Shown here one piece after another: positions 5,601-8,600 of a DNA stretch of 64,000 nt. This DNA comes from Flaccisagitta enflata (taxonomy: Eukaryota): assembly GCA_965153355.1 (NCBI GenBank), contig OZ231126.1, positions 7,192,001 to 7,256,000 on the forward strand, written 5' to 3'. Each line of letters starts with the position of its first letter. The first letter of the stretch is position 1. Under the pieces are notes generated by a model. The model was not told the DNA's origin. It ran no database searches and was given only the letters and a program-made list of their open reading frames with translations. A program made the position numbers and the translations under genes.

Positions 5601-8600
5601 TTGACATTTTTTTCGCCTTTGATTTTCAGTTTGATCCATGTTGATTATAAAGGTTTTATCACATTCAACTACGGTCAGTGCATCATTTTTCATCATAGAC
5701 ATTGAGGAACTCAAGTATAGGAACTAAAAAACCAGACAGCATGGGTAGAACAATGCTCGATTGCTCACAGCAGTCCAATAACTCCATCATCTTCACCCCC
5801 AAAACATTCTTTTTTTTCCTCTTACTGCTTTTTTGAATTTTGACTCATGCACCTTCGTTTGAGTGTAATTTCTAAACGAATAAAGCTACAGATGTGGGAT
5901 TGCGCTCAAAAGAAAGCCCTCGAAAAAAGCTTCAATTTGGTCACCAATAAATCATATCTCAAGTGAACCAAAGGCGCAAAAATCACCTTTAGAAAAACTT
6001 GCGTTTTTTTTAATTCGCGTAGTACATTATCCAGTCTATTGGTAACCTTTACCAAAACAACAATTACAAACCAGGTGAAAAAAGACTTGCCATACTTCAA
6101 CTTAATATTACCTCTACCAAGACAACAATAACTAATAAGGTGGAAATGTCATTTACAATTCAGACAAGAGCGAAATTGGTGATTTGAACATTTTCTCACG
6201 GTTATCACAAAAGCGTGACGGATGGACATGACCTCATATGGAGATGCTGACTAGATACGGCCGATATATGCGCCTCGCGAATTATTATCATGTAAGAATG
6301 TATGAATGTTTTTGTCATTGAAGGATCTTTTCGAGAATAAATGAATGCATGATTGAGCTACAGAATCAAAACAACGAACGTGTGGATCGATTAGAGATCA
6401 AAAATGAAGAAAGGCACGCGCGATTTTAATGTATGCGTGATGGACAGACCAACCAACCAACAGACATGACCTCTCTTAGATGTGTGAGGACGCATCTTAG
6501 GAGGGGTAACCCGGTTTACCCCACCCTACCCTCATCTACACAGCAGAGAACGAGGGAGCATTTTCAGGCCTGTACATAGTTGGGGGGAGGGGAAAAATAA
6601 AATCATAGGATTTGCGGAGGGGGAAGGAAATCAGAGGGTGGAAAAATGAATACCTAGTTTCAATTAAGCAGTTGTATTTGACTATGGGTAGATCAGTGCA
6701 TAAGAAAAACAGATGTTTTTTCCAAATTTTCGAACCATGTGCTCGGTCTATCATCAGGGAAGCCGAGCACATGGTTCGAAAATTTGGAAAAAACATCTGT
6801 TTTTCTTATGCACTGATCTACCCATAGTCAAATACAACTGCTTAATTGATTATCGTCGCAGTGCTAACGATGTCGTTCAAAACAAAGAATACCTAGTTTA
6901 AAGATACTTTTGGCAGTAAGAATGTAATATTTAGGCACTGCAACACCATTTTACACCATTTAAACCAATTCGCTTTACATCAGCATAGTAAGTCACCACA
7001 GTTGTAAAGCGAATTGTATATCTCTGCTCATCGCATTCATTAAATGGTTCCTACGTCAGACTCGAAGCCAGTCACAGACTGGGGTATCTGCTAGGACACC
7101 AAAAAAGTATCCAATTTAAACCAATGTATTATTATATATAAGGGGTATCTGGGGAACAAATCAAATGTAGTACGACCCGGCGGGGAAGAAAATCAAAGGA
7201 CCAGGGGGGGGGGAGAAAGAAGTCAAAGGTCGCGCAACTGTATACAACTCTGAACAATTTATTCCTCTTATGGTCCAAATGAAAAGGTGCAAAGAATTGC
7301 ACTGTGACGTGTAAGAATTGGGTATCGTTAAACAAGGCCAAGTAGGCCAATAAGGTGCGACGTGTGGATCGTCGAACGAATGCGTTACAGACCGACAGAC
7401 AGACCAACGGACAGAGCCAGTTATAGAGGTGCTTTGTCGCACCTAAAAACAAAGATCAGAAATTGAAATTATGGATAGACTCATACTAACCAAAAGAAAC
7501 GTATAAATCGAAAGTAAAGGCAAAAATTTGCTCCTCAAAAAGTATGGCCATACCCATAAAAGAGCTCATTTCATGTAAGTCGTTTCCTTTCTCTCTGGCT
7601 CTACCTGTTGGTTACAGTGCAAGATTACTGTACCAGTCCTTCGTTTTCTGATGTTTGCATCGCCTTGCGCGACTTTTTTAGATGTTTCCTCGCATCTCTG
7701 ATCTCTTTTCAATGTTTATTCATGAAAAATGTTCCTTTAAAAAAAGGTACATTTATCGTTGGCCAAATTGGCCTTGCATGTTGATTTTGTAACCAATGCA
7801 ATTTTGTACTGTGGCAGACCTTTTGATTAGGATCGGAGCCTGTTTGGCTCCTCTTTCTAAAATTTGTGCATCTAGGAAAGGTATGGGATAAAAGAAAGGA
7901 TGCGGGCGCAAGATAACTTAATTGGCCAATAAATGAGAAATATTTAGAATCAAACGAACATCAGAAATTTGTCGGGATTTGATATCGATCCTCATTTTAG
8001 AAACATGGGCTCATCAACTTTTTATTCGTCGATGCTCTTGAAAAATTGACCTTTGCCTCTCTCTCTATCTTTCTCTCTCTCTCTCTCTCTCTCTCTCTCT
8101 CTCTCTCTCTCTCTCTCTCTCTCTCTCTCTCTCTCTCTCTCTCTCTCTCTCTCCCTCCCCTCTGTCCGTCTTCCTGTCAGTCAGTCTGTCAGTCTTTATC
8201 TGTCCGTCTCTCTCTCTCTCTCTCTCTCTCTCTCTCTCTCTCTCTCTCTCTCTCTCTCTCTCTCTCTCTCTCTCTCTCTCTCTCCGTCCCCCTGGCCCTG
8301 TCAGTCTTTATCTGTCCGTCTCCTCCCTCTCCCTCTAGCTCTGTCCGTCTCTCTCTCCGTCTCTCTCTCGCTCTCTCTCGCTCTCTCTTGCTCTCTCTTG
8401 CTCTCGCTATCTCGCTCTCTCTTGCTCTCTCTCTCTCTCTCTCTCTCTCTCTCTCTCTCTCTCTCTCTCTCTCTCTCTCTCTCTCTCTCTCTCTCTCTCT
8501 CTCTCTCTCTCTCTCGTCAGTAATCTTTTCTCTATAACAAGTTTTGTCAGATCTCTGTTTCGCCCTCTATCCCAGTGCATTGAGCCAAAATCATCATCAT

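Follow-up and report, generated by a model that had tools for sequence, protein, structure and literature searches.

Endonuclease-positive (EN+) Penelope-like elements (PLEs) insert as a recognizable unit, consisting of an inverted, 5'-truncated pLTR and a tail of 30-40 bp that is present on one side only (PMC8557442, PMC3846280). In the portions of this literature on which we draw, EN+ elements are defined by a DKG motif together with CCHH, in which two cysteines lie between GIY and YIG; Neptune and Nematis have a CX2-5CxxC zinc finger in the linker, Hydra elements have DKT and no CCHH, and Naiad has an N-terminal endonuclease (PMC8557442). PLEs also carry minimal hammerheads, with a helix I of 4 bp, a helix II of 5-6 bp, an unpaired base between positions 9 and 10.1, a G10.1-C11.1 pair and a palindromic 15.2-16.2, and the same account mentions opposite-strand pairs of such motifs 100-700 bp apart (PMC4209133). 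A Poseidon protein has been described in vitro: it cuts and extends both strands, two RT start sites bound the tail, uncleaved RNA is used, and the protein is predicted to be a dimer (PMC11167929). Here we compare with these systems a 252-base hairpin insertion in a stretch of 64,000 nucleotides from Flaccisagitta enflata (the window), which a sequence-only reading had taken for a recent Penelope-like insertion hiding a hammerhead ribozyme.

Results

Anatomy of the insertion

Read from the window sequence, the insertion (6648..6899) is the tail-end fragment of a Penelope-type element, an inverted, tail-less pLTR end being joined head-to-head to a tailed one (Table 1). The hairpin arms (6660-6746 and 6763-6849) are 87 nt each, 100% complementary and separated by 16 nt. 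The inverted end is truncated 5 nt upstream of the hammerhead C3; the direct end is truncated inside stem II, 11 nt after C3, and is thereby left without the catalytic core. On the minus strand the palindrome AAUU lies at 6728-6725, and the would-be cut falls between 6724 and 6723.

Table 1. Features of the insertion and its surroundings, in window coordinates.
Feature	Position	Strand	Remarks
Host intron, inferred	3255..9348	+	GT..AG, frame-compatible; joining 3254 to 9349 keeps the frame open in the ORF list
Left target-site duplication	6648..6660	+	GAATACCTAGTTT; 13 bp, exact match to right copy
Inverted, tail-less pLTR 3' end	6660..6762	-	103 nt, element sense on minus strand; 101/103 identical to ORF-bearing copy L037
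Hammerhead-bearing stretch, minimal type I, damaged	6720..6761	-	core CUGAUGA 6757-6751, swapped dinucleotide 6749-6748, GAAA 6731-6728
Direct pLTR 3' end	6763..6849	+	87/87 identical to L037
One-sided tail	6850..6886	+	37 nt (36-nt family tail and 1 A); 28 exact tail-pattern matches
Right target-site duplication	6887..6899	+	GAATACCTAGTTT; 13 bp

On re-reading of the window, the positions that the sequence-only reading had assigned to the repeats, arms, loop and tail proved exact, and the minus-strand letters of 6720-6761 are those it gave. Its proposal of an inverted pLTR plus a tailed, truncated pLTR within a target-site duplication is borne out by the repeats, the arms and the tail. Its part boundaries hold overall, except that base 6660 (T) serves both the left duplication and the arm and that one A of the tail is extra to the family tail. 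Likewise, the letters of its hammerhead stand, but the stem II that it drew, GACC/GGUUC, is a mutated form of the family's GAACC/GGUUC.

The element family and its ORF

The 794-Mb genome of 9 contigs contains at least 94 BLAST matches to the element (the best 40 of 164 candidates were scored), and 51 loci were examined for element ends. A common pattern runs through them: one arm reaches only as far as the pLTR end, the other continues 36 nt into the tail. Across the 51 loci the arms meet head-to-head after 5' truncation at points from 77 nt after the hammerhead C3 (+77) to more than 2 kb before it (-2000), and the long arms of the examined loci contain coding sequence. L030 has a 548-residue ORF (+5786-7429) on the same strand as the pLTR, with a hammerhead at +7528, about 100 nt after the stop, and more ORF pieces were found in L031, L033, L037, L039, L040 and L049. 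The translations read FDKG, SFDATALF and YMDD and, in the endonuclease part, GVY-CEEC-YVG with a downstream H..H (GVYLMKCEECKNAIYVG, later H and H), which is the CCHH motif. The longer copies, as distinct from the window stub, therefore join an RT with a GIY-YIG at the C terminus in a single ORF linked to the pLTR. The RT-EN linker of the protein P0001 has no CX2-5CxxC zinc finger.

The nearest Atlas clusters (0.96) carry RVT_1, GIY-YIG and HTH_animal; the homologue P0105 (33% identity over 95%) carries PF01541; and the database proteins closest to the family ORF are 67% identical and unnamed. A local Pfam scan of seven ORF pieces gave no family for any of the seven, and a PDB sequence search with ORF pieces returned no solved structure, only Asn-linker noise, so that the domains are named from their motifs, from the annotation of homologues and from the Atlas. 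By the criteria set out in the relevant part of PMC8557442, the sequence places the element in the Penelope/Poseidon type, with DKG, CCHH, a C-terminal EN and no zinc finger in the linker. The recurrence of the same ends genome-wide and the RT and GIY-YIG ORF of longer copies such as L030, for which the sequence-only reading had proposed a genome BLAST, support the Penelope-like origin that it suggested, and the insertion is almost certainly a PLE stub.

No full-length pLTR-ORF-pLTR copy of the window's family was recovered from five matches of at least 90% to the most 5' ORF piece and 14 new loci, and no tail among these 14 loci continued into an ORF. Broken copies that span both ends were found in sister families (L055, L060 and L062). 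In L055 the homologous tail reads directly into MSLKQLISVQYG, which matches the homologue N-termini MTLKQ/MTLKD. Since the L055 tail continues into an N-terminus that matches full-length homologues, the window tail contains the ORF start: 20 nt from the end of the 5' leader are followed there by the first five ORF codons (MSFKT), with the ATG at 6870-6872. In L060 the tail is on the short inverted piece and the long arm is without one; therefore either arm may be the longer.

Several features of individual copies were recorded in passing. Between the RT thumb and the endonuclease of L030 (5786-7429, + strand, about residues 318-345) there is an Asn-rich stretch that varies among copies and recalls the Asn-rich inserts described for rotifer Penelope ORFs (PMC3846280). 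L044, L045 and L046 share a pLTR subtype with a 4-nt insertion and a tail that finishes in a (TC)n tract, and are alike for several hundred bases past the tail, as if inside another repeat. L014 (1465-1800) has tails at both ends and the same flank inverted on both sides, with the element at the centre of a palindromically duplicated stretch of host DNA, and L031 (1624-8067) has three pLTR ends on one target sequence and an 837-bp inverted flank duplication.

The family hammerhead and its state in this copy

The family motif combines a helix I of 4 bp with the core, a single unpaired U, a helix II that starts from G10.1-C11.1, GAAA, the palindrome AAUU and U17. Set beside the description in PMC4209133, this sequence reads as a textbook minimal type I hammerhead. 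We aligned 13 motifs: the window's own, eight that are linked to PLE ORFs in its family or in sister families, and four chosen with a pairing descriptor or on visual inspection; five descriptor matches without stems (L043, L074, L075, L080 and window 31483) were left out. The structure is kept in 92% of 141 cells, with two-sided changes in 42 cells, a score that none of 500 shuffles reached and that the four picked rows inflate; slid controls gave 29-56%. Compensatory changes are present in the helices across sister families. Together with the hallmarks of the motif, this covariation upholds the earlier claim of a minimal hammerhead, at the level of the family. Position 17 is U in 11 of the 13 motifs, and U at this position makes a poor or weak cleavage triplet by the NUH rules. 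In the family, the hammerhead is probably a weak ribozyme that works on tandem transcripts, either as a dimer or with the help of protein.

A strict descriptor (core, 4-bp stem I and palindromic 15.2-16.2) has one match in the 64-kb window. The match is not due to chance, because the descriptor matched in only 1 of 100 dinucleotide-type shuffles of 64 kb. The hammerhead search that the sequence-only reading had recommended thus succeeded with the descriptor and failed with Rfam, where no hammerhead family matched over 6400-7200 at E up to 10. A microRNA precursor was considered and rejected; the microRNA models in Rfam were all sub-threshold and of a kind that fits any long hairpin.

Related motifs were noted elsewhere. 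Sister hammerheads at L052 (6837-6886), L057 (2972-3021) and L064 (3018-3068) keep G10.1-C11.1, with adjoining U-U mismatches or a bulged U in helix II, and L066 (7933-8258) carries minimal hammerheads of another family as a head-to-head pair. A further minimal hammerhead, also of another family, is found close to the putative host gene, about 6 kb upstream of the window (L068, 3834-3883, - strand). On visual inspection, an AUG made of A9, the unpaired U and G10.1 opens a short frame through the pLTR (L030, 7534 onward, + strand; L054, 5391-5440). This AUG occurs in the window's family and one sister and is not general, there being a stop in L062 and no AUG in L066 and L068. The ORF of the Anolis element likewise begins at helix II.

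The sequence-only reading had seen a hidden hammerhead ribozyme in this copy; that it is a working one is not supported. The loop reads UAGACC instead of the family's UGAACC, a GA to AG swap; the variant has a single genome match, the window itself, as against 40 exact matches to the family type. The swap places an A opposite C where G10.1-C11.1 should close helix II, and in folding predictions the probability of the closing pair falls from 0.96 in the family to 0.02 in the window copy, the value for an alternative bulged register. It also destroys the hammerhead AUG. The hammerhead helices are predicted to be sequestered, because a transcript across the insertion folds into the 87-bp duplex; when the whole insertion is folded the helix I pairs have a probability of 0.0, and the + strand hairpin is predicted at about -161 kcal/mol. 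The + strand arm starts inside helix II, without the core, and the insertion site has no tandem partner motif or tandem array with which a dimer could form. On these folding models the hammerhead of this copy would be non-functional, a passenger of the pLTR, and the sequestration in the duplex weighs more than the swap.

Age of the insertion

The arms do not differ at any of 87 positions, and in both arm and tail the copy matches the ORF-bearing L037 throughout (87/87 and 76/76), the loop swap being the sole difference from that copy (101/103 over the inverted arm). Identical arms were found at 8 of the 24 loci compared. Zero differences in 87 bound the divergence only below about 3.4%, and arms can be homogenised. 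Among the 15 joints listed from three DNA contig sets, none from 6660 to 6900 marked an empty allele. The sequence identities support the conclusion, reached earlier from the arms, that the insertion is young, though undated.

Origin of the inverted ends

Among the 51 loci, 29 pair a tailed arm with a tail-less one; the others comprised 4 segmental duplicates, 1 two-tailed locus, 1 complex locus, 12 single-armed loci and 4 unresolved ones. In 24 of the 29 the target-site duplication measures 12-13 bp: 16 of these have 13 bp, the other 8 have 12 bp. The remaining five were scored as 6, 10, 11, 16 and 17, where the 16 is the window itself with one mismatch allowed. On inspection, the last duplication base at the left junction of many two-armed copies, a T, is also the first base of the tail-less arm, possibly a 1-nt priming match.

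The insertion is very probably a young, doubly 5'-truncated copy of an endonuclease-positive Penelope/Poseidon-type retrotransposon; that it arose from two joined cDNAs has, in our view, about an even chance. By this route, the RT-GIY-YIG protein of the element would cut both strands of an AT-rich intronic site about 13 nt apart, and each 3' end would prime a cDNA on unprocessed element RNA. One cDNA would start at the pLTR end and the other 36 nt further, at the tail end; both would stop early, 5 nt before and 11 nt after the hammerhead C3, and joining of the truncated ends head-to-head would create the hairpin. Duplications of 12-13 bp fit two cDNAs primed from a fixed staggered cut. Further, among the 19 two-armed insertions of a set selected by the tail, 13 have a tail-less arm that outreaches the other, tailed one, so that each arm has sequence absent from the other, as in the window copy, and this too fits two cDNAs.

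The principal rival is fold-back, in which one long cDNA (or an antisense template) copies itself into a perfect palindrome; a subsequent asymmetric deletion of the centre would then reduce it to short arms around a 16-nt loop. For head-to-head Penelope junctions, self-priming on an antisense template has indeed been proposed (PMC3846280), and several of our measurements lean towards fold-back: the length of one arm correlates with that of the other (rho 0.53, P 0.02, n=19), the arms of a locus resemble each other more than they do most other copies, and templated extra bases occur at some junctions (L002, L009). Over 3114 columns from 24 loci, there are six private variants, each common to both arms of a single locus, as against 62 arm differences, which would suit fold-back or later conversion. 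Without trimming, however, fold-back cannot yield the window copy or 13 of 19 others, in which the tail-less arm extends further 5' and the tail is on the other arm; it requires a second event in most copies, including some without arm differences. We regard fold-back as a tentative explanation, somewhat short of an even chance, and the present data do not separate it from the two-cDNA route.

Within the two-cDNA route, a more specific reading is possible, and we advance it with reserve. A dimeric PLE protein may have left the family insertions behind through twin priming, with a fixed 12-13-nt stagger, start sites 36 nt apart and a frequent stall of both cDNAs at the folded hammerhead. If true, twin priming would explain the inverted pLTR, the one-sided tail and the constant duplication length in one step, and the hammerhead helix would gain a side role as an RT pause site. 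In a thin literature search, none of the matches listed brought Penelope and twin priming together; the in vitro facts are already in PMC11167929, in the part that we cite.

The junctions bear also on the notion of a dedicated mini-element, a non-autonomous hairpin of MITE-like or retrozyme-like kind that would be replicated as a unit. About ten loci are near the same compact size, towards which the top BLAST ranks are biased by the query, and of 24 independent insertions that bear a tail, 8 have their end in the range -13..+11 relative to C3. Yet this clustering, a lead only, falls short of significance (P 0.09 uniform, 0.20 exponential), the junctions vary from copy to copy along the continuum described above, and compact copies belong to different pLTR subtypes that are also found in ORF-bearing copies. 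The window's loop variant, moreover, has no second copy, and the tandem arrangement of retrozymes is missing. A mini-element is therefore very unlikely.

Position in the host gene

From the reading frames, the insertion would lie in an intron of a long, low-complexity gene on the + strand, with the hammerhead core antisense to it. Exon-like + strand frames join in frame across GT..AG, and the motif is on the minus strand, in the antisense orientation that the sequence-only reading had held. At L068 (4496-7879, + strand) the host gene has an open frame of 1128 codons rich in Lys, Arg, Ser and Glu. A motif in its upstream exon recalls GPATCH8/ZNF804; for this likeness the Atlas had no match, and none of 36 G-patch matches was near the window. 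The same intron contains other very high-copy short repeats (window 7331-7449, 6966-7016 and 5400-6030); its repeats appear as contig depth and sharp loose ends, with one 14-bp inverted pair.

The probable intronic position and a predicted hairpin of such stability speak for a reading in which the dsRNA stem, or the antisense ribozyme, has been co-opted to regulate the host gene. The copy is young and looks unselected, however; its + strand is without the catalytic core and its minus-strand motif is damaged and sequestered. In about 6% of a polyA RNA run (1,824 million letters), which is a weak test for introns, one read fell on 5300-8000 and none on the element, and the reads carried no sign of dsRNA or editing. 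Co-option seems to us very unlikely. Most likely the insertion is neutral debris that would form a stable hairpin in the host pre-mRNA as a by-product.

Discussion

The window locus itself is of little weight, being one of dozens of dead stubs. Taken as a whole, the family supplies numerous clean junctions that are independent of one another and whose duplications vary little in length; they could serve to test how PLEs make their inverted ends, a question that is still unsettled. From the sister families comes a natural covariation series of minimal hammerheads, most of which have U at the position of cleavage, and on which one could test whether motifs of this kind cut at all. This series and the narrow duplication length are the reusable parts of this analysis.

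An inverted truncated copy, a one-sided tail and a pLTR hammerhead are already published features, as the cited parts of the literature make plain. Like canonical EN+ PLEs as described there, the insertion has head-to-head pLTRs with one inverted, a tail at one end that overlaps the ORF start, a target-site duplication and the frequent 5' truncation; it differs in that both arms are extremely truncated. The duplications of 12-13 bp compare with 8-10 bp in the rotifer examples given (PMC8557442, PMC3846280), and their length is variable according to PMC8557442.

The family motif agrees with the metazoan PLE min-HHRs described in PMC4209133 in its helix lengths, unpaired base, G10.1-C11.1 pair and palindrome; the prevalence of U17 in our alignment and the loss of G10.1 from the window copy depart from that description. 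The non-LTR retrozymes, to the extent that 10.64898/2026.07.22.740005 characterizes them, are likewise non-coding, hammerhead-bearing and PLE-derived. They are tandem direct repeats, whereas the window insertion consists of one inverted unit that has a duplication and a tail; with no tandem array at the site, it does not qualify as a non-LTR retrozyme.

The closest comparison is with the Anolis Poseidon element PAc, as presented in the available text of PMC11167929. The two share the domain order, the clade features, a tail bounded by two RT start sites and AT-rich targets, and the hammerhead is uncut in integrated copies of both. The PAc ORF, however, has its start within the hammerhead, and RT begins about 111-118 nt inside that ORF; here, unlike PAc, the homologous ATG is in the tail, about 118 nt after C3.
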